NCBI GenBank assembly: GCA_018702955.1
Contig: JABJEK010000038.1
Location: 128,002-192,001 of the forward strand
Source: Rhodospirillaceae bacterium
GTDB lineage: Bacteria; Pseudomonadota; Alphaproteobacteria; UBA6615
Direction: 5' to 3'
Length of the DNA: 64,000 nt
Position 1 is the first letter of the stretch, and the number at the start of each line of letters is the position of its first letter. The notes under the pieces are model-generated. The model had not been told where the DNA came from. It saw nothing but the letters and a program-made list of their open reading frames with translations, and searched no databases. The position numbers and the translations under genes were made by a program. This document shows positions 12,405 to 58,757 of this stretch, piece by piece.

Positions 12405-13486
12405 GCGAGGCCGGCGATCTCCAGCGCCTTCGACCGGTCAAGGCCGAGCTTCTCCCCCGCCTCCAGCAACAGCACCCATGTTCCCTCGGGAATGAAGATG
12501 CCGTTGGCACCACGTTCCTTGCGGGCAGCGCGCTCGGGATCCCCGGGCACCAACACCGGCTTGGCCGGATCGGCCGGGCGGGCGCTCTTGGTGTAGTCGA
12601 CCATCGCGTCGACCTCCTGGGCGATCAAATTTGCATCCCCCAGTCGATGGGGGTCCATGACGATCATGGTCATGGTGTTGATGATCCCGTCGAGGCGCTC
12701 ATTGCCGGGCTGGATGGTGCCGCCACCGGAAAGCGCACCGGACATCAATTCGGCCATGAGGCACAGCGCGTAGCCCTTATGCTCGGCAAACGGCTGCAAC
12801 GCGCCGAGCGGATCATTGAACATGACCGCCGGATCGCTGGTGGGCTGACCCTCGCTGTCGATCAGCCATTCCTCGGGCACGGTTTTACCGGAATCATTCG
12901 CGACCCGGACCTTACCCATGGCGACGACGCTGGTCGCCATATCGAGAATGATGGGTTCCTCGGGGTTGGTCGTCGGCATCGCCATCGTGATCGGGTTGGT
13001 CCCGAACCTTGATTCGGCACCGCGGAAGGGTGCCACCATCGTGTGGTGATCGGTGACATTCGTGAAGTGGATCGAGATGAATCCCGCCGCGGCAATCATC
13101 TCCGCATAGGTGCCGACACGCCCGATATGATGGGAGTTCTTGAGTGTCGCAACGCAGATGCCGATGGCCCGCGCGCGTGTGATCGCATGCTCCGTGACCT
13201 CGGCCGCAACACTCTGGCCGTACCCCTTCTGCCCGTCATACTGGAGGAATACGCCCTCATCGAGATAACGACGTGCCGATATATTTGGCACCAAGAGCCC
13301 GCGTTGCAGATTGTTCACATAGGCTTGGAATATGCCCACGCCGTGGCTGTCGTGGCCCGACAGATTGGCGCCAACGAGGTGCTCGGACACGATCCGGCAC
13401 TCGTCTTCGTGGCTGCCGCCCAGGCGGACCATTTCGGAAATCAGCGCCGTCAATTCCGCAGCGCGCACAGTTACATCACCGGACAC
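12401..13486 (-). CDS. Ldh2-family (malate/L-lactate dehydrogenase 2 type) oxidoreductase
   Basis: 361 aa. EHLVGANLSGHDSHGVGIFQAYVNN is the Ldh_2 signature. The family includes ureidoglycolate, sulfolactate and piperideine/pyrroline-2-carboxylate reductases. Confidence 0.8.
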   Translation of the reverse strand: MSGDVTVRAAELTALISEMVRLGGSHEDECRIVSEHLVGANLSGHDSHGVGIFQAYVNNLQRGLLVPNISARRYLDEGVFLQYDGQKGYGQSVAAEVTEHAITRARAIGICVATLKNSHHIGRVGTYAEMIAAAGFISIHFTNVTDHHTMVAPFRGAESRFGTNPITMAMPTTNPEEPIILDMATSVVAMGKVRVANDSGKTVPEEWLIDSEGQPTSDPAVMFNDPLGALQPFAEHKGYALCLMAELMSGALSGGGTIQPGNERLDGIINTMTMIVMDPHRLGDANLIAQEVDAMVDYTKSARPADPAKPVLVPGDPERAARKERGANGIFIPEGTWVLLLEAGEKLGLDRSKALEIAGLA

Positions 13487-13573
13487 AGAAGCCCCCTCGA
13501 TAAGAAATTCGCGCGGAAGCTAACCGATCAGGCGTCGTCGGTCATCACCCATGCTGTAACGATTAGTGGTGCC

Positions 13574-14365
13574 TTAGACGACGGGCGAACGCCCACCATC
13601 CACATTGATGGCACAACCCGTTACGTAAGACCCCGCATCGGAGACGAGGAAACAGGCCGTATTGGCAAATTCCTCTGCCTCGCCCGCCCGGCCCAGCGGA
13701 ATCCCGGCACCGCGCCCGGCCATATATTCCTCATAGGATTTTTCCGGCGCCTGCACCTGATGGCGGCGTTCGTGCTGGCCCGACTTTATGAGTCCGACCA
13801 GAAGCGCATTCACCAGGATATTGTCGGGTGCGCCCTCACCCGCCATGACCTTGGTCAGCGCCATACCTGCAGCGCGCGACACGGAGGTCGGCGCGCTCCC
13901 AGCGCCCGGAGCCTTCGCGCTGACCGCCAGCACATTGATGATCCGACCCCATTTGCGCGCCGCCATTCCCGGCATCGCAAGCCGGCCCAGGCGAATGGCC
14001 GCAAACAATTTAAGGTCGAGATCCGCCTGCCAACGTTCGTCATCGCATTCGAGAAACGGACCGATGGCGTGTTGGCCCGCATTGTTGATCAGAATATCGA
14101 CGTCGCCGAAACTGTCGCTCACGGTTTTCCACATCGCCGCAATCTGGCCGGTGTCGGTGACATCGCAGGGAATCGCCTCGACTTTCACCTTGTTCCCGCC
14201 AACGGCCGACATCACCTCCTGACACCCCGCCTCCAACCGGTCGGCCGAGCGCGAAACCATCGCCACGTTGGCCCCCGATTCCGCGAACTTTTTCGCCATC
14301 GCCAGACCGAGCCCTTCGCTGGCGCCGGTAATCAATGCGGTGCGTCCGTCGAGACGTACATCCAT
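13574..14365 (-). CDS. SDR-family short-chain dehydrogenase/reductase
   Basis: Internal ATG at 14363-14365 (MDVRLDGRTALITGASEGLGLAMAKKFAESGANV, TGxxxGxG). The ORF-track start is a TTG extension. Confidence 0.85.
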   Translation of the reverse strand: MDVRLDGRTALITGASEGLGLAMAKKFAESGANVAMVSRSADRLEAGCQEVMSAVGGNKVKVEAIPCDVTDTGQIAAMWKTVSDSFGDVDILINNAGQHAIGPFLECDDERWQADLDLKLFAAIRLGRLAMPGMAARKWGRIINVLAVSAKAPGAGSAPTSVSRAAGMALTKVMAGEGAPDNILVNALLVGLIKSGQHERRHQVQAPEKSYEEYMAGRGAGIPLGRAGEAEEFANTACFLVSDAGSYVTGCAINVDGGRSPVV

Positions 14366-20342: not shown

Positions 20343-21783
<1,441 letters not shown>

Positions 21784-33465: not shown

Positions 33466-34191
33466 CTAGCGGCTATTGGCTGCAGCATCGAAGCTGTCGA
33501 AATCGACCAACGTGCCAAGCATTTGCATGTAGGCGATAAGCGCATCCAGCTCGGTGATCTTGCCGGCCTCGCCGTCGAAGACCCGCGCCTGGGCTTTCGG
33601 ATAACGGGCCAGCAACGCATCCACATCGCCCTCATCGGGGTTCGCCTGCGCTTCGACATCGGCAACTGCGTTGGCGATCATTTCGTCGGTGTAGGGCACG
33701 CCAACGGTGCGGTTGGCCTCAAGATGTCCGGCCATATTCTCGTAATCGAGGCGGTTCGTCGCGAGGAACGGATAGCCCGGCATGATAGATTCCGGCACGA
33801 TCGAACGCGGGTCGATCATGTGAGTCGCGTGCCACTCGTCGGAGTATCTGCCACCGACGCGCGCCAAGTCCGGCCCGGTGCGCTTGGACCCCCATTGGAA
33901 CGGATGGTCGTACATGGATTCCGCCGCGAGGCTGTAGTGGCCATAACGCTCCACTTCATCGCGCAAAGAACGGATCTGCTGGCTGTGACAGGCATAGCAA
34001 CCCTCGCGGATGTAGATGTTACGCCCCGCGAGTTCGAGCGGCGAATAGGGCCGCACGCCGCGGACTTTCTCGACCGTGCTGTCGAGCCAGTAGAGCGGTG
34101 CGATTTCCACCAGGCCTCCGATCGCGACGACGACGAGAATACCGATGAGCAGGACGAACGAGTTTTTCTCGATAAAGGAATGTTTGATCAT
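33466..34191 (-). CDS. ccoO: cbb3 oxidase subunit II, monohaem cytochrome c
   Basis: 241 aa, CYACHSQ. Confidence 0.9.
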
Positions 34192-34200
34192 GTTCGTCTC

Positions 34201-35811
34201 CTACGCCCGCGCTGCGGCCGTACCGGCCATGGGTGCCTCGGCGCGCACCTCGCCCCGGATCGTTCTCCAGAGGTTGTAGATCATCACCAACATCCCGATG
34301 ACGAACAACAGGCCGCCCACCGCGCGGATGACGTAGAAGGGATGCATCGCCTCGACGGTCTCGATGAACGAGAATTCAAGGAAGCCGAGATTGTCATAGG
34401 CGCGCCACATCAACCCCTGCAGGATTCCCGACACCCACATCGCGGTGATGTAGAGGACGATCCCGATGGAAGAAATCCAGAAGTGGACGTTGACCAGCCG
34501 CAGAGAATAAAGCCGCGCCTGCCCCCAAAGCGGTGGCACGAGGAAGTAGATCGCGGCGAAGCTGATATAGGCCACCCAGCCAAGAGCACCGGAATGTACA
34601 TGGCCGATTGTCCAGTCGGTGTAATGGCTCAGCGCGTTCACCGTGCGAATGGCCATCAGCGGCCCCTCGAAGGTGCTCATGCCGTAAAATGCCAGTGACA
34701 CGACCATGAAGCGGATCAGCGGATCGGTTCGGATCTTGTCCCAAGCGCCCGACAGGGTCATCAGGCCATTCACCATGCCGCCCCATGACGGCATCCAGAG
34801 CATCACCGAGAAGACCATCCCGAGGGTCTGGGCCCAGTCCGGCAGCGCTGTGAAATGCAGATGATGCGGCCCGGCCCAGATATAAAGGAAGATGAGCGAC
34901 CAGAAATGGACGATCGACAGCCGGTACGAGAAGATCGGTCGTCCTGCCTGCTTGGGCAGGAAATAGTACATCATGCCCAGAAAACCGGCGGTTAGAAAGA
35001 AACCCACGGCATTGTGCCCGTACCACCACTGGGTCAGCGCATCCTGAACGCCCGCCCAGGCAATATAGCTCTTGGAACCCATGAGGCTCACCGGCACCGT
35101 CGCATTATTAATCAGATGCAGCATCGCAACCGTGACGATGAAGGCGAGGTAGAACCAGTTGGCGACGTAAATATGCGGCTCGCGGCGCTTCCACAGCGTG
35201 GCCAGGAAGACCAACAGATAGGTCACCCAGACAATCGTTAGCCACAGATCGATATACCATTCGGGCTCGGCATATTCCTTGGACTGGGTGATCCCCAGCA
35301 GGTAGCCCGTGGCCGCCAGGACGATGAAGAGCTGGTAGCCCCAGAAAACGAACCAGGGCGCCAGCTCACCGGCCAGCCGCGCGCGGCAGGTGCGCTGCAC
35401 GACATAGAACGACGACATGATCAGGACGTTGCCGCCGAAGGCGAAGATCACTGCCGAGGTATGCAATGGGCGTAGCCGGCCGAAATTCAGCCACGCAGTG
35501 TCGAAGTTCAGGACCGGGAATGCCAGCTGCAGGGCGAGGGTCAGGCCAACAAGGAACCCGACCAGCCCCCAGAAGACGGACGCGATCGCACCGGCACGGA
35601 CAACGCCGTCATTGTAATCGATACGGTCCGACCCGCCGGCCGGGCTGACCTTAGGTTCGTAAATTCTGTTGATCAGGAAAAACACGGCGATGATGGCTGC
35701 CCCGGCGAAGAGCATCGCGTGTATCCGCATCCCTTCATCCGCTGCGCCCGCCGCAACGCCCAGTCCCAGCGCAGCCGCAATCCCGAGCCCAAAGAGTGCA
35801 AGTCCGTTCAT
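34201..35811 (-). CDS. ccoN: cbb3 oxidase subunit I
   Basis: ATG at 35809-35811 ([15 protein letters not shown]...). Twelve or more TM helices, haem-copper oxidase His ligands. Confidence 0.9.
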
Positions 35812-41730: not shown

Positions 41731-43196
41731 TCCTGCGCCGCGAAGCCGGCGCAGAACGGGCCCACATGCACGGCGAGGCTCTCGACCCGCTCCCGCGCGG
41801 CCACCCGGGCCGGTTCCTGGCGCGCCACAGCCACCTCGACGTCTGCACGCAGTTTTTCCATATCCACGGTCGTCACGCGGCCGTCCTCGACGACCATGCG
41901 TCCGTCGATCATCACCTCGCGCACCCCGCCGCTGTTCTCGGCGAAGACGATCTGGTTGACCGGGTCGTTGAGGGGCACATAGCTCACATTGCCGAGGTCG
42001 AGCATGACGATGTCGGCCTTGTAGCCGGGTGCAATACGCCCGATCTCGCCCTCCCAACCCAGTGCCTTCGCGCCGGCTTCGGTTGCCATTTCAAGCGCCT
42101 GCGCGCTTTCCAGCCATTGTTCATAATCCGGGCCCTGGACCCGCGACAGGGTACAGGCGAGCCGCGTCGCCTCGAACATGTTGAGGGCGTCGGCGCAGGT
42201 GCAAGTGTCTGTGCCGATGGCGACGTTGATTCCGGCATCGCGCATCGCAACCGTCGCCGCGACCCCGGACCCCAGCCGGAGATTGCTCATCGGGTTGTGG
42301 GACACGGACACGCCCCGGTCGGCCAGCAAGTGCATGTCGTCGGTAGACAGCCAGATGGCGTGTGCGGCGACCATGTTCGGGCCGAGCACGCCTTGCGCAT
42401 CGAGAAAGGCCGTCAGGCTCATGCCGTACAGCTCCTGGCTCGCCACGGCCTGCACTTTTGATTCCGCCAGATGGGTCTGCATCAAAACGCCATACTCGCG
42501 CGCCAGGTCGCGGCACCCCTGCCAGAAGGTCTCGTCACAATGATGAGGAATGGTCGGCCCCAAACCCAGCTTTACCCGCGCCGGGTCGTGGGGCCAGTTA
42601 TGCAGCGCGTCACGGCAGGTCTCAAGCGACGTCGCACCCGGGCCCGCCTGCAGACCGTCAGCGACCGTCTTCATCTCCTCGGGCAACACATCATACAGAC
42701 CGGGGATGGCCTGCCAGAGACCGCGCGTGGACATCATCGGCGCCACGACAGCGCGCATGCCGACGTCCATGTATGCCTGACCGGCAGCCTCAAGTCCCTC
42801 GCGTGACGGGGCCGGTCCTTCCGCAAACATATCGAGACATGCGGTACACCCCCCGAGAACAAGTTCACAGGCCGTCAGCTTCGCGGCGAGACACTTGTCC
42901 TCCTGGGTAAAGCCGGCCCCGGTCCAGGGATGGGCGTTAAGCAACAGCTCAAGGGTCCAGCGGTCTCCCATGCCCTTCGCAAGACTTGAGTTGCCATGGG
43001 TGTGACCGTTCACCAATCCGGGCATGAGCAGCCGGTCGGCGGCATCGATCTCAATCGCACCTTCGGGTGCGCCAAGCCCGCCGGAAGCGATCTCGACAAT
43101 CGCGTTGCCCTTGATCAGAACGTCGGCGAATTCGGCCGTGCGGGCGTCAATGTCGAGCAACCGCCCGCCGCGGATGATTTGGAACTCGTCAGGCAT
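41703..43196 (-). CDS. amidohydrolase-family enzyme (chlorohydrolase/deaminase subfamily)
   Basis: 497 aa. LLMPGLVNGHTHGNSS metal-binding motif, HLAES, internal HxxE-D. Confidence 0.85.
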   Translation of the reverse strand: MPDEFQIIRGGRLLDIDARTAEFADVLIKGNAIVEIASGGLGAPEGAIEIDAADRLLMPGLVNGHTHGNSSLAKGMGDRWTLELLLNAHPWTGAGFTQEDKCLAAKLTACELVLGGCTACLDMFAEGPAPSREGLEAAGQAYMDVGMRAVVAPMMSTRGLWQAIPGLYDVLPEEMKTVADGLQAGPGATSLETCRDALHNWPHDPARVKLGLGPTIPHHCDETFWQGCRDLAREYGVLMQTHLAESKVQAVASQELYGMSLTAFLDAQGVLGPNMVAAHAIWLSTDDMHLLADRGVSVSHNPMSNLRLGSGVAATVAMRDAGINVAIGTDTCTCADALNMFEATRLACTLSRVQGPDYEQWLESAQALEMATEAGAKALGWEGEIGRIAPGYKADIVMLDLGNVSYVPLNDPVNQIVFAENSGGVREVMIDGRMVVEDGRVTTVDMEKLRADVEVAVARQEPARVAARERVESLAVHVGPFCAGFAAQDHAVNRFVG

Positions 43197-43241
43197 TTGC
43201 GATGTCCCTTTTGTTGATCAGGAACACAGCTTAGCGCGAAA

Positions 43242-44510
43242 TTACCCGCCGATGATGCCCGCCGGCCCCTTCTGGGCATCCGACAGTCCGCTCGGTGCGC
43301 CGATCCGCTCGGGCAGATTAAAGCCACCCTGCATCTGCGCCCCATAGGGGCCGACGCCGCCGTGCTCCGGCACCAGGATTTCACGCTGGTGATCGTCTGA
43401 AATCTTCCCGGCGAACACGTCATTGATCCAGTCGGCGAGGTAGCCATAGAAGTCGATGCCGCCGAAGTTCGGGCGGTTGCGCGGGTTATGGAAATCGTTC
43501 TCGATAACCCACAACTCTTTCGGTGCCGGGACCTTGTCGTAGATCGGCAACACGGTCTCGAGTGGCGCCAGCGGGTCATACTCGCCGGTCACCTGCAGCG
43601 CAGGGCACTTCACGTCAGCAGCCACATCGTCGAGCACCATCTTCGAGGCGAATTCGTCGAACTCGTCCTCGTCATGGATGCCGGCCATATACATGAACAC
43701 CTGTTTGAAGCGCGGCGAGGCCTGCTCGAAGATCGCGGTCTTGGGGCCGTAGCAGGCCGCCGCCGTGGCGACCGCCTTGACCCGCTTGTCGAGCGCGGCC
43801 ATGCGCATGCCCCAATAGGAGCCCATGGAGAAACCGGACACGGCGATCCGGTCGGGATCGACTTCGGGACGTTTGACCAGATAATCGATGGCCGCCGACC
43901 CGGCGCGCTCGTAATTGTCGAGGGTGACGCGAATCTTGCGGATGTTGCTCGTGCCCTGCCCCGGGCCGTCCAGATGCAGGCAGTTCAGGCCGCGCTCCAC
44001 GAAAGGGTGGCGCAGCGGGTCGACGAAGGCTTCCTTGGTCATGTCCATGCCCGGGCAGAACACAACCGTCGGCGCTTTCTCGGCGCCCGGCACCATGTGC
44101 AGGACGCCCTGGATGAAGTTGCCCTCGAACGGGATCTCGACCCGCTCGATCGGGTGGGACGAATGCTCCATCACCTTGCCGAAACATTTGAGCAGCATGT
44201 CGTGCAGGTAAATCTTCTCGGGATTGTCGTCCTCGAAGATCGTGTGCTGGGCCTCGCGGTAGTGCTCACTGGCAACCCAATACAGCTCGGCAGCGGTCTT
44301 TGTGTGGCCGGCCTTCTCGGCCTCCTCCGCGATCGCCACAACATGGCGGGCATGCTTGTCGACGACCCGGTGAATCTGTGCGTACGACTTCACCTCCGGC
44401 GGAATGACCCGGTTATCGTATGCGAAGTTCTGCACCCGGCCCGTGGTCTTGATGACCCAGTCCAGCATCCACTGCTGATTATCGCGACGACGTTCGGTTT
44501 TTTTCGACAT
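43242..44510 (-). CDS. alpha/beta hydrolase of the FrsA / 2,6-dihydroxypseudooxynicotine-hydrolase-like family, copy A
   Basis: ATG at 44508-44510. 422 aa. PIERVEIPFEG...GFSMGSYWG...DEDEFDEFAS. Paralogue of 60013..61251. Family assignment from memory, tentative. Confidence 0.7.
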   Translation of the reverse strand: MSKKTERRRDNQQWMLDWVIKTTGRVQNFAYDNRVIPPEVKSYAQIHRVVDKHARHVVAIAEEAEKAGHTKTAAELYWVASEHYREAQHTIFEDDNPEKIYLHDMLLKCFGKVMEHSSHPIERVEIPFEGNFIQGVLHMVPGAEKAPTVVFCPGMDMTKEAFVDPLRHPFVERGLNCLHLDGPGQGTSNIRKIRVTLDNYERAGSAAIDYLVKRPEVDPDRIAVSGFSMGSYWGMRMAALDKRVKAVATAAACYGPKTAIFEQASPRFKQVFMYMAGIHDEDEFDEFASKMVLDDVAADVKCPALQVTGEYDPLAPLETVLPIYDKVPAPKELWVIENDFHNPRNRPNFGGIDFYGYLADWINDVFAGKISDDHQREILVPEHGGVGPYGAQMQGGFNLPERIGAPSGLSDAQKGPAGIIGG

Positions 44511-44576
44511 CTGGCTTCCCCCATTTTTGCCCACCGACGGCACTTGTGCGGCGGTTTCCTGCGTGTCTCTATACAT

Positions 44577-44610
44577 CCGTGGTGCGTGTCTGAACAGACG
44601 CTCACCACGG
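44577..44610. promoter_or_regulatory. nested palindrome CCGTGGTG-cgtGTCTGaaCAGACgct-CACCACGG in divergent promoter
   Basis: 8-bp perfect inverted arms flanking an internal GTCTG/CAGAC palindrome. Sits between the divergently transcribed hydrolase (start 44510) and MFS gene (start 44649). Confidence 0.35.
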
Positions 44611-44648
44611 CGCACAATTCCCGCCATCCAATCCGGTTTCGCTACTGA

Positions 44649-45845
44649 ATGTCCAGCCCCCGCAACATAAAACTGGTCCTCATCCTGGCCCTGGTATCCG
44701 GGCTCGGGCCGATCACGATTCACGTTATCCTGCCGGTCCTGCCGGAAATCCAGCGGGTGTTCACAGCCAGCAGTGCCGTCACCCAATTCACGCTCACGCT
44801 CGGGGTCCTCGCCATGGCGGTATCGACCATCGGCTACGGGCCGGCGGCGGACACGTTCGGGCGCAAACCGGTACTGGTCGTTGGCCTCATACTGTTCATT
44901 GTCGGCAGCGGCATCTGCATCTGGTCGCCGACGATCGAGGCGCTGATCTTCGGTCGCATCGTACAGGCGGTCGGCGGGGCCGCAGGCATGGTTGTCGCCC
45001 GCGCTACCATCCGCGACATGTTCAGCCGCGAGGATTCCGCCCGCATGATCGGGCAAGTTATGTCGATCGTGGTGATCTCGCCCATCATCTCTCCCGTGAT
45101 CGGCGGGTTCATCGTGCAGTTCGCAGGCTGGCAATATGTTTTCATCCTCACCACGATCATGGGTGCGGTGACGCTTGTGTTTGCCCTGCCCAGCATTCCC
45201 GAGACCCGTGTCGCGAATGCGCAAACAAGTTCCCTTGCGCACACGTTTCGCGCGTTTCCGGGCTTGCTGCGCGACCCGGCCTTCCTGGCCTATGCCGGCT
45301 ATGCAGGTTGCGGCATGGGCATGTTCATGGTGGTCGCCGGCGGTGTTCCCTTCCTGATGGCGGATGTATTCGATCGCACACCGGCCGCATTCGGGCTGTT
45401 CTTCATGATGATGAGCGGCAGCTTCCTCGTCGGTACGGTCATCAGTTCGCGCATCACCGTGCGCGTGGGCCTGGACCGCATGGTCCGCATCGGCAGCACC
45501 GGGGCGATGGCCGCATCGCTGTTTGTCCCCGCGCTCTTTTTCGCCGGCATCCAGACACCATGGGCCATCTTCCTGCCCGGGATATTCGTGGGCATCTTCC
45601 ATGGGTTGGCGATGCCGAATGCCCAGGCCGGCGCGGTCAGCGTTAATCCCCAGGTGGCCGGTTCCGCATCGGGCCTCACCATGTTCTTGCAGATGTCCAT
45701 CGGCGCAGCATTCGGACAGGCCGCGGGCATGCTGCCGCACGATTCTGCACTCCCCGTTGCCATCCTGATCGGTATCGCCGGGCTGGGCGGATACCTCGCC
45801 TATAATGGGACCTTGTTTTTCGCCCGCTGGAGGAACATTCCATGA
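44649..45845 (+). CDS. MFS transporter, Bcr/CflA drug-efflux subfamily
   Basis: 398 aa, 12 TM segments, G..GRKPVL motif. Confidence 0.85.
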   Translation: MSSPRNIKLVLILALVSGLGPITIHVILPVLPEIQRVFTASSAVTQFTLTLGVLAMAVSTIGYGPAADTFGRKPVLVVGLILFIVGSGICIWSPTIEALIFGRIVQAVGGAAGMVVARATIRDMFSREDSARMIGQVMSIVVISPIISPVIGGFIVQFAGWQYVFILTTIMGAVTLVFALPSIPETRVANAQTSSLAHTFRAFPGLLRDPAFLAYAGYAGCGMGMFMVVAGGVPFLMADVFDRTPAAFGLFFMMMSGSFLVGTVISSRITVRVGLDRMVRIGSTGAMAASLFVPALFFAGIQTPWAIFLPGIFVGIFHGLAMPNAQAGAVSVNPQVAGSASGLTMFLQMSIGAAFGQAAGMLPHDSALPVAILIGIAGLGGYLAYNGTLFFARWRNIP

Positions 45846-46537
45846 AGACCCTATTCATCGCATTAGCCGGCCTTCTTCTTGCCGTCGTGGCGCCGTTGCC
45901 TGCTCACGCGCAAGTGCCGCCGGGCTAGAACGAGATCGAGGCTTATGACGGGCTGTTCCGGGCTGCCGCTAACGGTGATGTCGACGCCATCAACCGGCTG
46001 GTTACCGAGGGGGCGAAGCTAAACGCACGCGATGGCCGCAAACGCACGCCCCTGATGGTCGCCGCACACCTGCGCCAGTACGACGCCGCGCGCGCCCTGA
46101 TCGCAGCCGGTGCGAACGTCGACGCATTCGATGCCGACCGGTATGACGTGATCACGATCGCCGCAGTGGCCGATGACCCTCAAATGCTGCGCATCGCGAT
46201 CGCAGGTGGTGCCAACACCAGCCTGGTAACAAGCATCTATGACGGCACCGCGCTGATCGCCGCAGCACATCTGGGCCATGACGAAGTGGTGCGTACCCTG
46301 ATCCAGTTTGACGCGCCGCTGGACCACATCAACAATCTGGACTGGACGGCGCTGATCGAGGCGATCGTTCTGGGCGACGGCGGGCCGCGCCATGTCGCGA
46401 CCGTCAGGGCGCTCGTCGATGCCGGTGCGGATGTGGACATTGCCGACGGGCGCGGCGTCCGCCCACTCAGCCTCGCGCGCCAACGCGGCTATGCCGAAAT
46501 CATCGAAATTCTGGAGGCGGCAGGCGCCAAACCCTGA
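45842..46537 (+). pseudogene. secreted ankyrin-repeat protein interrupted by an in-frame TAG (45926-45928) between the signal peptide and the first repeat
   Basis: ATG 45842 overlaps the MFS stop (ATGA). MKTLFIALAGLLLAVVAPLPAHAQVPPG-TAG-NEIEAYDGLFRAAANGDVDAINRLVTEGAKLNARDGRKRTPLMVAAH... all in one frame. ORF track only shows the 160-aa downstream part. Confidence 0.6.
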
Positions 46538-46574
46538 TGCCCTCTCCGACTTGCATGCATAGAAGGACCCCAGC

Positions 46575-47180
46575 ATGAACACTGAACTCGAAGACCGGCT
46601 AAGCATAAGAGCCCTTGTGGAGAACTGGGTCGTGTGGCGCGATGCCGGCATGTGGGACCGGTTCCGTACGGTCTGGCACGACGACGGGGTGATGGTCGCC
46701 ACCTGGAAACAAGGCACGGCGGACGAGTTCATTGCCATGAGCCGCGCCGGTTTCGAGAACGGCATCAACGTCCATCATTTCCTCGGCGGCAATTCCATCG
46801 ACCTGGCGGGCGATCGGGCCATCTCCATGACCAAGATGACCATCGCGCAGCGCGCCGAAGTTCATGACGTGTTGGTCGACGTGGTCTGCACCGGCCGCTT
46901 CTATGACTTCTTCGAACGTCGTGACGGGCGCTGGGGCCTCGTCCTGCGCCAGCCGATCTATGAGAAGGACCGGATGGACCCGGTCGACCCCGCGGCCGAT
47001 CTCGAACTCGAGAAGGGCGTCCTCGATTCCTATCCCGAGGGCTATCGGCACCTGGCCTATCTTCAGTCGCGCAACGGCATGGATGTGAAGCGCGACCTGC
47101 CCGGCGTGCGCGGTCCCGAGGTTGAAGCTCTTTATACCAGAGGCCAAGCCTGGCTCGACGGTGCGGACTCGCCGTTTTGA
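46575..47180 (+). CDS. NTF2-like (SnoaL/limonene-epoxide-hydrolase-like) small protein
   Basis: 201 aa. Fold assignment is weak. Confidence 0.45.
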   Translation: MNTELEDRLSIRALVENWVVWRDAGMWDRFRTVWHDDGVMVATWKQGTADEFIAMSRAGFENGINVHHFLGGNSIDLAGDRAISMTKMTIAQRAEVHDVLVDVVCTGRFYDFFERRDGRWGLVLRQPIYEKDRMDPVDPAADLELEKGVLDSYPEGYRHLAYLQSRNGMDVKRDLPGVRGPEVEALYTRGQAWLDGADSPF

Positions 47181-47225
47181 ACAACACCCATTAGTCTGTC
47201 GGCGTTTTCTCGGAGGAATTTGAAT

Positions 47226-49541
47226 ATGCAGTTCGGTATTGGCCAGTCGGTCCGTCGCAAGGAAGATCCTAAGTTTCTGACCGGCCGGGGGCGTTATGTC
47301 TCCGACATGGTGTTGGCCCGCCAATCCCATGCCGTCTTCCTCTATTCCCCGTACGCGCATGCGGACATCAAATCGATCGATACGTCCGGTGCCGAAGCCG
47401 CGCCTGGCGTGATTGCCGTCCTGACGGGCGCCGACTATGTGGGCGACGGGATGGGGCCGACCGGCGGCGTCATGCCCGAAGACATGGGTGGGCCTCCCGG
47501 ACACCGGACCATGCATATGCCGCTTGCGGTTGACCGGGTGCGGTTCGTCGGTGAACGCGTGGCTGTGGTGATTGCCGAAAGCGAGGACCAGGCACGTGAT
47601 GCCGCCGAGCATGTGATCATCGACTATGCCGACCTGCCGGCTGTCGTCATGGCCGCCGACGCCGTCAAGGACGGCGCGCCGCTGGTCCATGACGAGGCGG
47701 AGAACAACGTCAGCTTCACCCTGCGCCTCGGCAACGGGGACGAGACCGACGCCGCGATCAAGGGCGCCCACCATGTGACGCGCATCAAACTCCACAACAA
47801 TCGCCTCGACGCGATGACCATGGAACCGCGCGGCTGTCTGGGTGAATTCGACACGAGCACAGGCCGCCTCACCTTTTATACAAGCACGCAAAACGTGCAT
47901 GGCATCCGCCAGGGCCTCGCGGCCCAGAATCTGAACGTGCCCGAAAGCATGATCCGCGTCGTCGCGAAGGATGTCGGCGGCGGGTTCGGCATGAAGGGTC
48001 ATGTCTATCCCGAAGAGGCTGTCGTCGCCTGGGCCTGCAAGCGTGTCGAACGCCCGGTGAAGTGGATCGCGACGCGCAGCGAAGCGATGATGGGTGACGA
48101 TCACGGGCGCGACCAGACCGTCGAGGTGGAATTGGCGCTCGACGAGAACGGCAAATTCACAGCGCTGCGCTGGCACGCCCTGCACAATGTCGGCGCCTAT
48201 ATCGAGGGCGCGGGGGCAATTCCCGTTCTGTTCGCGGTCAAGCTGGCACCGACCGTCTACAACATTCCCAACGTGGACGTGATCAACAAGGCTGTCTTCT
48301 CCAACACCTCCCCGACCGTGCCTTACCGAGGTGCGGGCCGGCCTGAGGCGGTCTACATCATGGAGCGGGTGGTCGATGCGGCCGCGCGCGAGACCGGGAT
48401 CGACCGGGCCGAGCTGCGGCGGATCAACTTCATCACACCCGAGGAAATGCCTCATTCGACCCTTACGGGCTGGACCTACGACACCGGCGATTATGCGACC
48501 GCCCTCGAAAAAGCACAGGGTATTGCCGACTGGGACGGATACAACGCACGCAAGGCTGCGACGGAAGCCAAGGGTCTAAAACGCGGCCTGGGGCTCGTCT
48601 ATTACGTCGACAACACCGGCATCTTCAACGAACGCATGGAGATCCGTTTCGACCCGAGCGGCACGGTCACGATCGTGTCCGGCGTGCTCTCGCATGGTCA
48701 GGGCCACGAGACGTCATTCTCCCAGATGCTGGCGGAATGGCTGGATATCCCGATCGAGGATGTCCGGCTGGCCCAGGCGGACACAGATGAGGTGGCCATC
48801 GGCCGCGGCACCTACGCATCGCGCTCCATGATGGTTGGCGGCAGCGCGCTCCGCGCGGCGGCGGACGAAGTTATCGAGCGCGGCAAGAAGTTCGCGGCGC
48901 ACTTCATGGAGTCCGACGCGGCCGATATCGAATTTAGCGACGGCAAATTCACGATCGCAGGCACCGACAAGGAAATGCCCCTCAAACAGGTGGCGCAGAT
49001 GTCGTTCATGCCGGTCCATGTCCCGAGCGAACTGGGTGTCGGACTGCAGGGTGTCGGCGCGTTCGCCGCGGAGGTGCCCAGCTTCCCCAACGGCTGCCAT
49101 ATCGGCGAGGTCGAGATCGATCCCGATACGGGTGCCGTACGCATCGATCGCTACACGGTCGTCGATGACATCGGCACGGTGATCAACCCGTTGCTCGCGC
49201 AGGCCCAGATCCATGGCGGCGTGGTGCAAGGCGTCGGACAGGCACTTCTTGAGGATGTCGCTTATGATCCGGAAAGTGGCCAGCTCCTTGCGGGCTCACT
49301 CATGGACTATGGCGTGCCCCGCGCGGACCTGATGCCCGAAATCAACGTCGATTTCAGTCCGGTATTCAGCAAATCGAACCCGCTCGGCGCGAAAGGCGTC
49401 GGCGAAGGTGGCACGGTCGCCGGCACGCCGACGATCGTCAACGCGATCCTCGATGCCCTGGCGGAATATGGCGTGCGGGAAATCGATACGCCGGTCACCC
49501 CGCAGCGGATCTGGCAGGCGATCCGGAAATCCGGCAGCTAG
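47226..49541 (+). CDS. xanthine dehydrogenase / aldehyde oxidase / CoxL-family molybdopterin-binding large subunit, with no small or medium subunit genes nearby
   Basis: ATG at 47226 after GGAGGA. QFGIGQSVRRKEDPKFLTGRGRYVSD...GGGFG... About 771 aa. Confidence 0.85.
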   Translation: MQFGIGQSVRRKEDPKFLTGRGRYVSDMVLARQSHAVFLYSPYAHADIKSIDTSGAEAAPGVIAVLTGADYVGDGMGPTGGVMPEDMGGPPGHRTMHMPLAVDRVRFVGERVAVVIAESEDQARDAAEHVIIDYADLPAVVMAADAVKDGAPLVHDEAENNVSFTLRLGNGDETDAAIKGAHHVTRIKLHNNRLDAMTMEPRGCLGEFDTSTGRLTFYTSTQNVHGIRQGLAAQNLNVPESMIRVVAKDVGGGFGMKGHVYPEEAVVAWACKRVERPVKWIATRSEAMMGDDHGRDQTVEVELALDENGKFTALRWHALHNVGAYIEGAGAIPVLFAVKLAPTVYNIPNVDVINKAVFSNTSPTVPYRGAGRPEAVYIMERVVDAAARETGIDRAELRRINFITPEEMPHSTLTGWTYDTGDYATALEKAQGIADWDGYNARKAATEAKGLKRGLGLVYYVDNTGIFNERMEIRFDPSGTVTIVSGVLSHGQGHETSFSQMLAEWLDIPIEDVRLAQADTDEVAIGRGTYASRSMMVGGSALRAAADEVIERGKKFAAHFMESDAADIEFSDGKFTIAGTDKEMPLKQVAQMSFMPVHVPSELGVGLQGVGAFAAEVPSFPNGCHIGEVEIDPDTGAVRIDRYTVVDDIGTVINPLLAQAQIHGGVVQGVGQALLEDVAYDPESGQLLAGSLMDYGVPRADLMPEINVDFSPVFSKSNPLGAKGVGEGGTVAGTPTIVNAILDALAEYGVREIDTPVTPQRIWQAIRKSGS

Positions 49542-55267: not shown

Positions 55268-57750
55268 GGTGATCTGTTCGGATGCATATCAAAGAGCAGC
55301 TCCGCAAGCTCACTGAACTCCATCCCCGGCCGCATGACATCCGCTAACTTGGGATAGAGATTCGCGTAGGCATCGTTGCTCAGAACTAACCGATCGTCCT
55401 CATCCCAAAGCAGGAAACCGTCGTGCAAGCTACCAATGGCATCTGCAAGCCGTATTTCCGCCTGCCGGATCGCGGTGATGTCCGTGCGAACGGCGACCGC
55501 TCCACCTTCTTCGGTATGACGGCGTGACACGCGCACGACACGGCCATCATCGAATCTGCGTTCAAAGTCGACTTCCTCACCGTGCATCCGGAATTGTTCT
55601 TCAATCCATTCCTCTTCACGACCGAGGGCATCCTTAACTTTCCCGCTGTATGCAAAGACACGGATCATGTCATCGAATGCCATTCCGATATGTATCTGGT
55701 CGACCGCATCGCCAAAATCTCGCGCCCAGCTGCTGTTATAGGCGGCGAGCCTGTCGTTCCCGTCGAACAACACAAAGCCATCCTGAATGGCCTCGATCGC
55801 GTCCCGCAATCGCATCTCGACCCGCTTCAGTTCGGTCGCCTCCGAGTTCAGGACAACAACACCACCATCTCGCGTATTGTTGGCCGAGACGACATAGGTG
55901 CGATCATCGGGAAAGCTAACCTCGACATCACCCTCGGGATTTCGGTGCTGCTCGACACGTTCATCGATCCACGCATCGAGATCGGAAGTATCGGGAACCA
56001 GAATACCTGTCTCGACCGCCATGCGGATCACGTCGCGGATGTTCATCCCGACTTCGATCTCGCCCCCAAGCGACTGAAACATTTCAAGATACTTGCCGTT
56101 GGCGATGACCAGACAATCATCCTTGTCGTAGAGCGCAAAGCCATCGCGCATACTTTCAATCGCATCGGTCAGGCGATATTCAGCATGCTTCATTTCGGTA
56201 ATGTCCGACCTGAGGGTCACAATGCCGCCGTCGGTGGTGCTGTGCGATGCCACCCTCAGCGTCTTCGCGCCAATCTGAAGCTCCTGCAGGGTGTGATCTA
56301 CCGCGTGCTTGGCGACCTGATTGTCTATCCACTCATCCCTGTCGATCGCATGCCCCTGCATTTCGACAAGATCAAAGGTGAACCCCATCAGCTCTCGAAA
56401 AGTGACCCCTGGCACCACCCGGTCCGCATATTCGCCAAAGTCCCGACGGTATCGCTCGTTCGCCACCACCAGACGATCATCGGCATCGTAAAGCACGAAG
56501 CCATCATTGAGGCTTTCGATCGCATCGCGCAGATGTGCCTCGGCGCGTTTGACCTCGGTGATGTCGGTACGAATACCAACGATGCAGCCATCGTGCATCC
56601 GCCGGTCCGTGATCAGAATCCAGCGACCTTCCGTTGTCTCCATTTCATGGTGCTGGCCGTTGTCTGCAGTGTGAACTACGCACATACGCTCTACCCACGC
56701 CTCCGGATCCGCAATCACCTCAGGGTCGGCGTAATGACCTGTTTCAATACCCAGGCGAAGAACATCCCTGAAATGCATGCCCGCGCCCTCCACCATCGCC
56801 GGCATGAACGGGAAAAACTCACGGTATCTGGAGTTGTAGCGAACGATCCGATCATCGGAATCATAGAGAATGAAACCATCCGAAAGAGTTTCGATCGCTT
56901 CGGCAAGAAGGCGTTCGGCCTGATCGGTTTCTGTTTTCGCCTTTTCAGCCTCGCGACGCGCCTTTCCGAGATCCTGCTCGCGCCGCCATTCCTCATCCAC
57001 ATCGCGAACCGCACAATAGAGTTGCCCCATCTGGTCAGCCGTGATGTGCCAGTCCGTCCAACGTGAGCTTCCCGAACCGTCGATCACCCGGACTTTAAAC
57101 CGTGCGGTCTCCTGCCCCGCGATCAGATTGTCGAGCGCGCGCTGAACGATTGGCTGGTCTTCCTAGAAGACCAAGTTTATCAGGGGCTCGCCAGATAATG
57201 CGGCGGCATCACGCCCCAGAATTTTTTCCCACTCCTGATTGACGGTATGAAGCCTGCCATCGCTGCCGGCCATTCCCAGAAGGTCGTCCGACAACTCGAA
57301 AAACCGCTGATAGCGCTGACGCGAGCGCGTCACATCGCGCAACGCCTCTTCATTTCGGCGCTGGTCCGTGACGTCGCGAAAACGGGTGACAAAGCCGCTT
57401 TCGATCGGTCGACCGTGAATTTCAAGAAAGGCGCCGTCCGGACGTTGGCGCGTGAGAGTATAGGCATCGCCCGGCGCGAACAATGAGATGACTTGCGTCG
57501 TTAGTTCCTCGGCATCCCCGGGTCCATAGTCTCCGCGCTCCGCCGCAAAACGTACAGACTCGATCCAATCCTGCCCCGGCTTCATGAGCTCCGCAGGTAT
57601 ATCCAGGAGTTCCTGTGCCAGCGCATTCGACGTCACGACGCGCAATTCGGAATCGAATATGATGACGCCGCCACCGAGCGTATTCAGAACACCCTGGAGC
57701 ATGCTGCTCGTATCTTGCGTCGAACCTGCCGAACTTCCGTCCATCACCAT
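55225..57750 (-). pseudogene. tandem-PAS-repeat protein (about 7 PAS modules, no output domain) split by an in-frame TAG at 57163-57165
   Basis: ORFs 57163..57795 and 55225..57087 share a frame. The 25 codons between them read EDQPIVQRALDNLIAGQETARFKVR and continue into GSGSSRWTDWH.... Repeats follow the pattern RL.DAIESL.DGF.LYD.DDRLV. The C-terminus ends abruptly against the HlyD fragment. Confidence 0.55.
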
Positions 57751-57926
57751 ACCGTCCAAGCCATCTGCACGTGGCAATTCCACTTCCCGAAACAACTCTG
57801 GGCTGTATGTTGCACAGAATTCGGGCGCGCGACGTTAACTTATTTCGCCTGGCGTCAATAAATGGTTAACAGGCGGCACAGATGCGCGGTATTCGGGTGA
57901 TTTATCAGGCTCTTAGGTGACCACTT

Positions 57927-58757
57927 CTAGTTGTTAGAGACCCACTTAACTAAACTTCCAACCCACAGTCCCTCCGCGTGACCGCAGGCATATGAGGAGC
58001 CGAGATGGTCGCAGTCCGACAGGCTAACGGTCTTAACCGTACCGCCGGCGTCTTGCAGTGCCCGCGCCATTTTTTCTGCCTGCACAATGAGGTGAGGAAA
58101 ATCCCGATCGCCCCATGCCATCAGGAATGGCGGCGTATTCGTCATCGTGTGAATCGGGCTGGCGTCGGTGTCGTTTCCAGCGTTCTCGCCCAGGAAACGG
58201 GGATTCGCAGGCATTCCATTGCCCTCGGTGAAATCATAGACACCTGAGACCGGCAGCGCGCCCCGAATGACATCGGCGGGCACGCCGGCGGCTTCCTGCC
58301 AGTCGGACCGAACGGCGAGCCACGCCGCCTGATGCCCGCCTGCAGAGTGTCCGCCCACGAAGATGCGCTCAGGGTCACCGCCATGGGCTGCGATATTGTT
58401 GTAAACCCAGGCAATCCCAGCCGCTGCATCTTCAACGCCGGCCGGCCAGATGACAGCAGGAGCCAATCGGTACCCGATACTGACGAATGTTATGCCGGCT
58501 GCCGTCAGCGCCGGGGCCATAAAGGCCATCCATTCCTTGTAGCCGTTCGTCCAGCCGCCGCCGTGCATGAACGCGACGACGGTTCCGTTCGGCTCGGGTG
58601 CGGCAAATACGGCTACTTCCTGATACGGATCATCGCCATAGGCGAAGGATTCACCACTTATGCCTGCGCCCAGTTCCTGGACACGGACATGATACTTCGC
58701 GCCGATATCGGAAAAAGGTTCCTGTGGCGGATATGAATCGAGGTCGCGAAGTCCCAT
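57927..58757 (-). CDS. alpha/beta hydrolase fold-3 (HGGG-type) esterase/deformylase, arylformamidase-like
   Basis: FMHGGGWTNGY oxyanion motif. GGHSAGGHQAAW nucleophile elbow. ATG 58755-58757 overlaps the upstream stop (ATGA). Confidence 0.8.
   Translation of the reverse strand: MGLRDLDSYPPQEPFSDIGAKYHVRVQELGAGISGESFAYGDDPYQEVAVFAAPEPNGTVVAFMHGGGWTNGYKEWMAFMAPALTAAGITFVSIGYRLAPAVIWPAGVEDAAAGIAWVYNNIAAHGGDPERIFVGGHSAGGHQAAWLAVRSDWQEAAGVPADVIRGALPVSGVYDFTEGNGMPANPRFLGENAGNDTDASPIHTMTNTPPFLMAWGDRDFPHLIVQAEKMARALQDAGGTVKTVSLSDCDHLGSSYACGHAEGLWVGSLVKWVSNN

Follow-up and report, generated by a model that had tools for sequence, protein, structure and literature searches.

A Probable Recent Amber Allele of a Predicted Exported Ankyrin-Repeat Gene in a Near-Clonal Marine Rhodospirillaceae Population

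Introduction

A gene that opens with a predicted signal peptide, runs into an amber codon five codons past the predicted cleavage site and then continues in the same frame as an intact ankyrin-repeat domain raises the question of what that stop codon is. Such a gene lies in a 64-kb stretch of Rhodospirillaceae DNA, referred to here as the window and providing all coordinates given below. Translation from the ATG at 45842 reads MKTLFIALAGLLLAVVAPLPAHAQVPPG, followed by TAG and then, in the same frame, by NEIEAYDGLFRAAANGDVDAINRLV and onward up to a TGA at 46535-46537. An earlier note on this DNA had named three options for the interruption: a recent CAG-to-TAG nonsense mutation, an assembly error, or a site of stop-codon readthrough. 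Our analysis of the locus, of its orthologues and of metagenomic contigs carrying it indicates that, in all likelihood, the window holds a genuine and recent nonsense allele, Q29*, that segregates in a natural near-clonal population of an uncultured marine Rhodospirillaceae bacterium.

Gene Organization

The gene immediately upstream (44649..45845, forward strand, as are all features described here) encodes a Bcr/CflA-type MFS transporter, matching Pfam MFS_1 with an E-value of 2.4e-43 and NCBIfam TIGR00710 with 248 bits against a cutoff of 200.9. Its TGA at 45843-45845 shares a 4-nt ATGA with the start codon of the ankyrin gene at 45842-45844. This overlap is kept in all syntenic orthologues, suggesting that translation of the ankyrin gene is coupled to that of the transporter gene. 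A Shine-Dalgarno sequence, GGAGGA (45829..45834), lies 7 nt 5' of the ATG, whose pairing with the anti-Shine-Dalgarno sequence (−9.3 kcal/mol) ranks among the strongest 0.9% for ATGs in the window.

The first 23 codons (45842..45910) encode a predicted Sec-type signal peptide, MKTLFIALAGLLLAVVAPLPAHA, with a lysine at position 2, a 14-residue hydrophobic core of mean Kyte-Doolittle hydropathy 2.96, and A-H-A at −3/−1, after which cleavage would probably occur. Judged from sequence features alone, the n, h and c regions and the AxA site are conserved across orthologues; A23, Q24 and P27, at or just past the predicted cleavage site, are nearly invariant, and the motif AQ[VT][PA]P is conserved at that site. 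The first five mature codons, QVPPG (45911..45925), are all that is left ahead of the stop. Beyond it, 202 codons and a TGA (45929..46537) encode an intact ankyrin domain of six repeats, and the read-through translation matches Pfam Ank_2 with an E-value of 3.2e-32. A full-length product would carry the peptide QVPPGQNEIEAYDGLFR (QVPPG-X-NEIEAYDGLFR) across the stop junction.

The architecture described in the earlier note is thus borne out: the ATG at 45842 overlaps the transporter stop, a signal peptide (predicted, and conserved in orthologues) is followed by an in-frame TAG at 45926-45928, and an ankyrin body continues in the same frame to 46537. Also as described there, the list of open reading frames hides the gene, reporting just a 160-aa frame from an internal ATG that lacks a Shine-Dalgarno sequence (46055..46537), which public gene callers annotate as a “hypothetical protein” (P0016).

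The Ankyrin Protein and Its Genomic Context

The AlphaFold2 model of the protein consists of six helix pairs (pLDDT 97.4), corresponding to six ankyrin repeats rather than the four counted in the earlier note. Its best match in the PDB is 5d66_A (Foldseek TM 0.89/0.92, 42% identity, rmsd 1.9 Å), and phmmer aligns residues 38-230 with the same protein, ABAYE2397, at 1.7e-36, so that the Pfam assignment, the model and the structural match all indicate an ankyrin fold. No NCBIfam model covers the protein, and its weak matches to ankyrin effectors fall far below the cutoffs.

The earlier note had called periplasmic ankyrin proteins uncommon; this family is not rare, occupying at least 597 loci among GTDB species representatives. 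When a collection of 5.8 billion proteins was searched, hundreds with lengths of 225-235 aa matched over their whole extent, signal peptide through C-terminus, and the closest orthologues are uninterrupted proteins of 228-232 aa with signal peptides. The alignment with full-length orthologues spans residues 1-231 and passes over the stop position, so the arrangement of signal peptide and ankyrin body in one frame is not the product of chance. No paralogue that might compensate for loss of the ankyrin gene is present within the window.

Downstream of the ankyrin gene lie genes for a SnoaL_4 protein (46575-47180) and for the large subunit of a molybdenum hydroxylase (47220-49541, ending in TAG), both identified by Pfam and NCBIfam. 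The surrounding cluster is shared by the window and relatives of as little as 68% identity, in the order pirin, PdxA, a TRZ/ATZ-type amidohydrolase and/or an FrsA-like hydrolase, the Bcr/CflA transporter, the ankyrin protein (the ATGA overlap being present throughout), SnoaL_4, the molybdenum hydroxylase large subunit and an NMT1-type ABC transporter. More distant family members have other neighbours: Bradyrhizobium has a sulfatase and TctC, Thauera has EamA and LysE, LysE is also found in Pseudolabrys and at the locus L110, and Caenimonas and Polaromonas have an exported HbpS-like protein. No catalase gene flanks the ankyrin gene in the window or at any of seven distant loci (L109, L110, L019, L033, L066, L049 and L017). 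Since the protein combines an ankyrin fold with a predicted signal peptide and apparent translational coupling, our working model is that it would serve in the periplasm as an accessory factor that binds proteins and is expressed together with the MFS transporter.

A Polymorphic Stop Codon

The identity of the codon at which the gene is interrupted was examined in the orthologues, as the earlier note had recommended. In the closest relatives (85-100% identity) the residue at the stop position is glutamine in every case, encoded by CAG in L011, L092, L093 and L094 and by CAA in L096-L098. Over the family as a whole codon 29 is variable, specifying Q, T, A, K, G, F, H, D or S, and none of the aligned orthologues has a stop there. 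Because its nearest relatives have a glutamine codon at this site, the window differs from the ancestral state by a single C-to-T transition, the derived T at 45926 having converted codon 29 (45926-45928) to TAG. The sequence context of the mutation, inspected by eye, is GGGC[C/T]AGAAC, in which GGCC is present and CCWGG absent.

A sense codon in orthologues had been put forward as a sign of sequencing error, in which case the organism would really have a C at 45926 and an uninterrupted gene. The sense codon is indeed found, while the error it was meant to signal is not, since an intact allele co-circulates with the interrupted one and the stop is polymorphic. Low coverage of several TAG contigs (2.2-4.5 according to the contig names), together with the existence of an otherwise identical intact version, would fit such an error. 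The same T, however, is present not only in the window but in ten independently assembled contigs (L001-L010) that are 99.9-100% identical to it and come from ENA (ERZ4201028, ERZ4201009, ERZ4231638, ERZ4231642), from the HAWL17-1 project (SAMN05224528, SAMN05224429, SAMN05224522), from JGI (3300037808 and 3300004280) and from Logan (SRR3719629). These contigs represent at least three BioSamples of one project as well as other projects, and were produced by different assemblers (SPAdes-style NODE contigs, JGI and Logan), and the C is just as consistent in the other contigs. Random errors would not strike the same base repeatedly. The stop is therefore genuine at the DNA level, and we assign an assembly error practically no probability.

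The truncated protein P0016 is recorded on 12 contigs, ten of which were read. The C is found on 11 contigs (L011 and L099-L108), giving a tally of ten T to 11 C among 21 contigs; three further, longer contigs (L111-L113) all have C. The samples with CAG include SAMN05224434, SAMN05224479, SAMN09405963, SAMN09406031 and SAMN09406061 as well as JGI 3300022931 and 3300072015. These tallies count assemblies rather than reads or within-sample frequencies, and the independent observations are fewer than 21, as several contigs end at the same coordinates and could stem from repeated assembly of one sample. The exact intact 231-aa protein, P0121, is encoded on 13 contigs, among them those of two NCBI Rhodospirillaceae bacterium metagenome-assembled genomes (MBT4906464.1 and MBT6403890.1, from GCA_018668895.1 and GCA_018664345.1). 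The alleles are distributed unevenly among projects: SCHR19-1 and the ERZ272501xx assemblies have C only, the ERZ42xxxxx assemblies T only, and HAWL17-1 both. An exact-pattern scan of metagenome contigs for the two alleles returned one contig, which was already in the collected set. One of the contigs with C, L011, carries a second variant in the gene: it lacks one asparagine of the conserved pair Asn164-Asn165, the latter residue being invariant.

Age of the Allele and Selection on the Gene

The two alleles reside on almost identical haplotypes. Throughout its 6696 bp the C contig L099 matches the window except at 45926, and across 42842-49537 the T/C at this position is the sole polymorphism common to more than two of the 21 contigs. 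Over longer distances, position 45926 and three linked sites, 49745, 49789 and 49820, account for all differences of L111 (18.1 kb) and L112 (14.0 kb) from the window; L113 (12.1 kb) shows the same four differences and an additional SNP at 44555. The divergence between haplotypes is therefore about 0.02%, or four bases over 18 kb.

Comparison of the window gene with intact orthologues gave dN/dS values of 0.08-0.13 for the whole gene and of 0.056-0.082 for the part downstream of the stop, no different from the values among intact orthologues themselves. The family as a whole shows a dN/dS of about 0.06-0.13, with no elevation in the window lineage, indicating strong purifying selection at the protein level, and by this measure the coding sequence 3' of the stop shows no decay. 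Taken with the near-identity of the haplotypes, these values indicate a nonsense allele that is evolutionarily very recent, the window copy having had no time to decay. The nearest intact haplotype, with its CAG, supports the earlier suggestion of a recent CAG-to-TAG mutation.

An apparent null allele is thus present in about half of the assemblies from a near-clonal population. This is more than would be expected for a strongly deleterious change in a gene with a dN/dS of about 0.1. The high count may hint at hitch-hiking, at conditional dispensability, or at positive selection for loss. A refinement of our explanation, rather than a strict alternative to it, is that loss of the ankyrin protein, or attenuation of the SnoaL and molybdenum hydroxylase genes by polarity, brings an advantage, or at least no harm, in certain water masses. 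Such a scheme fits the observations that within about 6.7 kb the 21 contigs share no polymorphism other than the T/C, that allele presence is structured by project, and that L011 has the asparagine deletion. This deletion and the frequency of the nonsense allele, taken together, may allow for a gene that is dispensable under some conditions or whose loss is selected. Clonal hitch-hiking, however, explains the pattern equally well, and the contigs were fetched by exact protein identity, which biases the frequency picture and hides other non-synonymous variants. Strong purifying selection on the family also speaks against the refinement, as does the composition of the untranslated stretch, whose rut-like C>G signal (0.16) barely exceeds the 95th percentile of the background (0.154). 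We consider adaptive or conditionally neutral loss rather unlikely. Rho-dependent polarity was set aside as a candidate in its own right, the composition being just marginally rut-like.

A stronger claim, that Q29* is maintained by selection, either through adaptive loss of the ankyrin protein or as a leaky amber attenuator with reversible C/T toggling, seems to us very unlikely. In its first form, examples of the benefit would be escape from a phage or predator, or economy where the linked N-heterocycle/molybdenum hydroxylase pathway is idle. In its second form, near-cognate readthrough by tRNA-Gln would yield about 1% of the wild-type protein, creating states of high and low expression.

Fate of Translation at the Stop

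Whether the stop is in fact decoded depends first on how TAG is used in this genome. Of 53 genes crudely mapped in the window, about 20 (~38%) terminate in TAG, among them ccoN, ccoO and the gene for the molybdenum hydroxylase large subunit, so that TAG is an ordinary and frequent genuine terminator here. The TAG of ccoN is in frame with the ccoO ATG and stands three codons before it, so that efficient suppression would be expected to fuse the CcoN and CcoO subunits. A change of genetic code or genome-wide amber suppression was rejected on the basis of this use of TAG. Pyrrolysine and selenocysteine were likewise rejected, the wild-type residue being glutamine and the codon not being conserved.

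Readthrough confined to this gene would still allow a full-length periplasmic ankyrin protein to be made, perhaps at a tuned lower level. The base at +4 of the stop is A, and +4A is among the weaker contexts for termination in bacteria. A U at +4 enhances termination, as stated in PMC5289835, which also lists work in suppressor-free E. coli where glutamine was reportedly inserted at UAG (Nilsson and Ryden-Aulin 2003). By analogy, glutamine inserted at this UAG would restore the wild-type sequence; the allele, moreover, is common, and its downstream reading frame is still perfect. That perfection is accounted for by the youth of the allele, with four differences in 18 kb, and the features that mark recoding sites are absent at this locus. 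The stop is not conserved among relatives, the closest haplotype having CAG, no orthologue has a stop at this position and the residue there is variable. Within the 64-kb window there are no tRNA genes, hence no suppressor tRNA, no pyrrolysine, selenocysteine or other suppressor machinery, and no Rfam matches. A 121-nt segment spanning the stop and the sequence beyond it is less stably folded than its shuffled versions (z=+2.4), offering no stimulatory structure. Given the regular use of TAG as a terminator as well, functional readthrough, the third option of the earlier note, is highly improbable.

The alternative to decoding the stop is to bypass it by re-initiation at the ATG at 46055, which would yield a cytoplasmic 160-aa ankyrin fragment with new or residual function. 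This ATG is the first in-frame start after the stop, and databases annotate its product as P0016. It lies 126 nt downstream of the stop, however, and lacks a ribosome-binding site: its anti-Shine-Dalgarno pairing of +1.9 kcal/mol puts it among the weakest 0.3% of ATGs in the window, 99.7% of which pair at least as well. In the AlphaFold2 model it falls inside helix A of repeat 2, so the fragment would lack the signal peptide and repeat 1 and begin within a helix. The earlier note had allowed that orthologues might universally start here without an upstream signal peptide; in the alignment none does, and no orthologue has such an architecture. The sole promoter-like match nearby is at 46308, inside the gene, with two matches counted against 1.0 in shuffled sequences, giving no sign of an internal promoter; terminator-like matches numbered one, against 2.4 expected from shuffles. 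We regard re-initiation as extremely unlikely, and the 160-aa frame is very probably not a real translation unit.

The possibility of other interrupted genes in the window was also considered. Three same-frame pairs of open reading frames (2570/3461, 30969/32436 and 33466/34201) were rejected as stop-split genes, each consisting of separate, complete genes, and a GC3-based scan for further stops inside coding signal was abandoned as unspecific, since shadow frames also score high.

Conclusions and Comparison with Known Systems

Together, these observations suggest the following course of events. A C-to-T transition changed the CAG of Gln29 to TAG in the gene for a predicted Sec-exported, six-repeat periplasmic ankyrin protein. 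Translation would still begin normally at the ATG at 45842, coupled to the upstream MFS gene, and would terminate once 28 codons have been read, five residues beyond the signal-peptidase site, with the consequence that the ankyrin domain is probably not made. Near-cognate readthrough should contribute a small leak at most, expected to be low. Should glutamine be inserted at UAG, as in E. coli, that leak would restore the wild-type protein. The allele is then likely to be a null or strong hypomorph, a newborn pseudogene that has acquired no further damage and still segregates beside the intact version.

For annotation, the locus recorded as the 160-aa P0016 is in reality a nonsense allele of a conserved 231-aa predicted exported ankyrin protein, and its record should become a pseudogene or an allele note. 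The analysis of the window and orthologues reveals no new mechanism and yields no evidence for recoding. Its interest lies in a clean and datable example of apparent gene inactivation that has reached an appreciable frequency among near-clonal marine bacteria in the wild.

The closest structural counterpart, ABAYE2397 of Acinetobacter baumannii AYE (PDB 5d66), is likewise a stand-alone bacterial protein of six ankyrin repeats and of the same size. It differs in being a structural-genomics entry with no assigned function, from a host belonging to the Gammaproteobacteria. The Legionella and Coxiella Dot/Icm effectors AnkY, AnkH and AnkG share generic ankyrin repeats with the present protein and account for its weak NCBIfam matches (59 bits against a cutoff of 600). 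They have a different architecture, lack a Sec signal peptide and are substrates of a type IV secretion system.

Small exported bacterial ankyrin proteins that serve as accessory partners of another protein provide another parallel, exemplified by the catalase partners AnkB and Cj1386 of Campylobacter. AnkB of Pseudomonas aeruginosa and Xanthomonas is a periplasmic ankyrin partner (Howell et al. 2000, as cited in PMC10294975 and PMC12754779), defined in those accounts by the katB-ankB catalase operon and by its effect on catalase activity or H2O2 resistance (PMC10294975, PMC12754779). Compared by genomic context alone, the two differ: AnkB belongs to a catalase operon, whereas the gene described here is coupled to an MFS gene and followed by SnoaL_4 and molybdenum hydroxylase genes. 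The context that defines AnkB is lacking, because no catalase is adjacent at any locus examined, and a function of the AnkB/KatB type was rejected.

In its mechanism, Q29* is no different from the classical amber mutations and newborn pseudogenes, which also arise from a single C-to-T change of a glutamine CAG to TAG in an otherwise intact gene. Like classical segregating nonsense alleles, it co-circulates with an intact allele while gene callers report the truncated downstream reading frame. What is noteworthy here is that such an allele is found in roughly half of the assemblies from a near-clonal wild population.

A second variant of the ankyrin gene

At the ankyrin locus, the gene calls of JGI, ENA and Logan list a "hypothetical protein" of 160 aa (P0016) that begins at an internal ATG, a record that is an annotation artefact caused by the nonsense allele. 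The stop is accompanied in the same population by an independent second variant of the gene, a 3-bp deletion at window 46334-46336, detected in contig L011 (L011:1241-1933; SCHR19-1, SAMN09406031). This contig carries the intact allele, with CAG at the stop site, alongside the deletion. The deletion costs the HINNLDW motif one Asn from its conserved Asn164-Asn165 pair; across the family alignment, Asn165 never varies. The MFS transporter gene directly upstream also differs in L011, where a change at window 45813 results in L389V.

Variation among near-identical contigs

Analysis of the three long intact-allele contigs (L111-L113) revealed a linked trio of SNPs within 76 bp, 49745 T>C, 49789 G>A and 49820 G>A, that separates the window from all three. 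These sites fall partly upstream of an NMT1-type ABC substrate-binding gene (start ~49804) and partly in its 5' end, and the trio could mark a short stretch exchanged by recombination or be a variant that affects regulation. The comparison covers the window and L111-L113; the TAG-allele contigs are too short to show whether these SNPs are linked to the stop. Over the 12-18 kb compared, the trio and the stop base are the only differences from the window, apart from an additional T>G at 44555 in L113.

A denser cluster of differences was observed in L102, an intact-allele MAG contig (GCA_018664345.1), where 53 mismatches and 6 indels are packed into ~270 bp (window 44556-44822) covering the intergenic region together with the 5' portion of the MFS gene (475 aa as called in this contig). 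Outside this stretch L102 is ~99.95% identical, and the divergent tract looks like either a recombination import or a chimeric assembly.

Similarity to the window ends entirely in L111 at ~36958 on the left and ~55023 on the right, while L113 remains collinear up to 56537, past the right-hand break; the first 369 nt of L011 (L011:1-369) show no alignment to the window. These breaks suggest that the population has variable flanks or structural variants, or that some of its contigs are chimeric. Identical end coordinates also recur in nominally different assemblies among L001-L010 (TAG allele) and L103-L107 (CAG allele), with three contigs sharing 45450 and two each sharing 45736, 47399 and 47791. 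They reflect either the same reads processed through different pipelines or assembly-graph breakpoints arising from strain variation, and they bear on how many observations count as independent.

Genomic context

In a crude gene map of the window, the longest stretches without a convincing ORF are 57486-58757 (1271 bp), 13486-14335 (849 bp) and 20942-21768 (826 bp), and neither an Rfam family nor a tRNA matches these three intervals. At the junction of the oxidase subunit genes ccoN and ccoO (34191-34203, reverse strand), the ccoN stop is a TAG lying in frame three codons 5' of the ccoO ATG, and amber readthrough of this codon at any level would generate a CcoN-CcoO fusion.

The neighbors of distant orthologous ankyrin genes may provide hints to the function of the family. 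In the Comamonadaceae (Caenimonas, Polaromonas), an exported HbpS-like (haem-degrading/GlcG-type) protein is encoded directly 5' of the ankyrin gene (L066:3501-3992; L049:3369-3893), and in three other lineages the gene is adjoined by a LysE-type exporter (L033:4750-5484; L017:4768-5382; L110:6613-7227).
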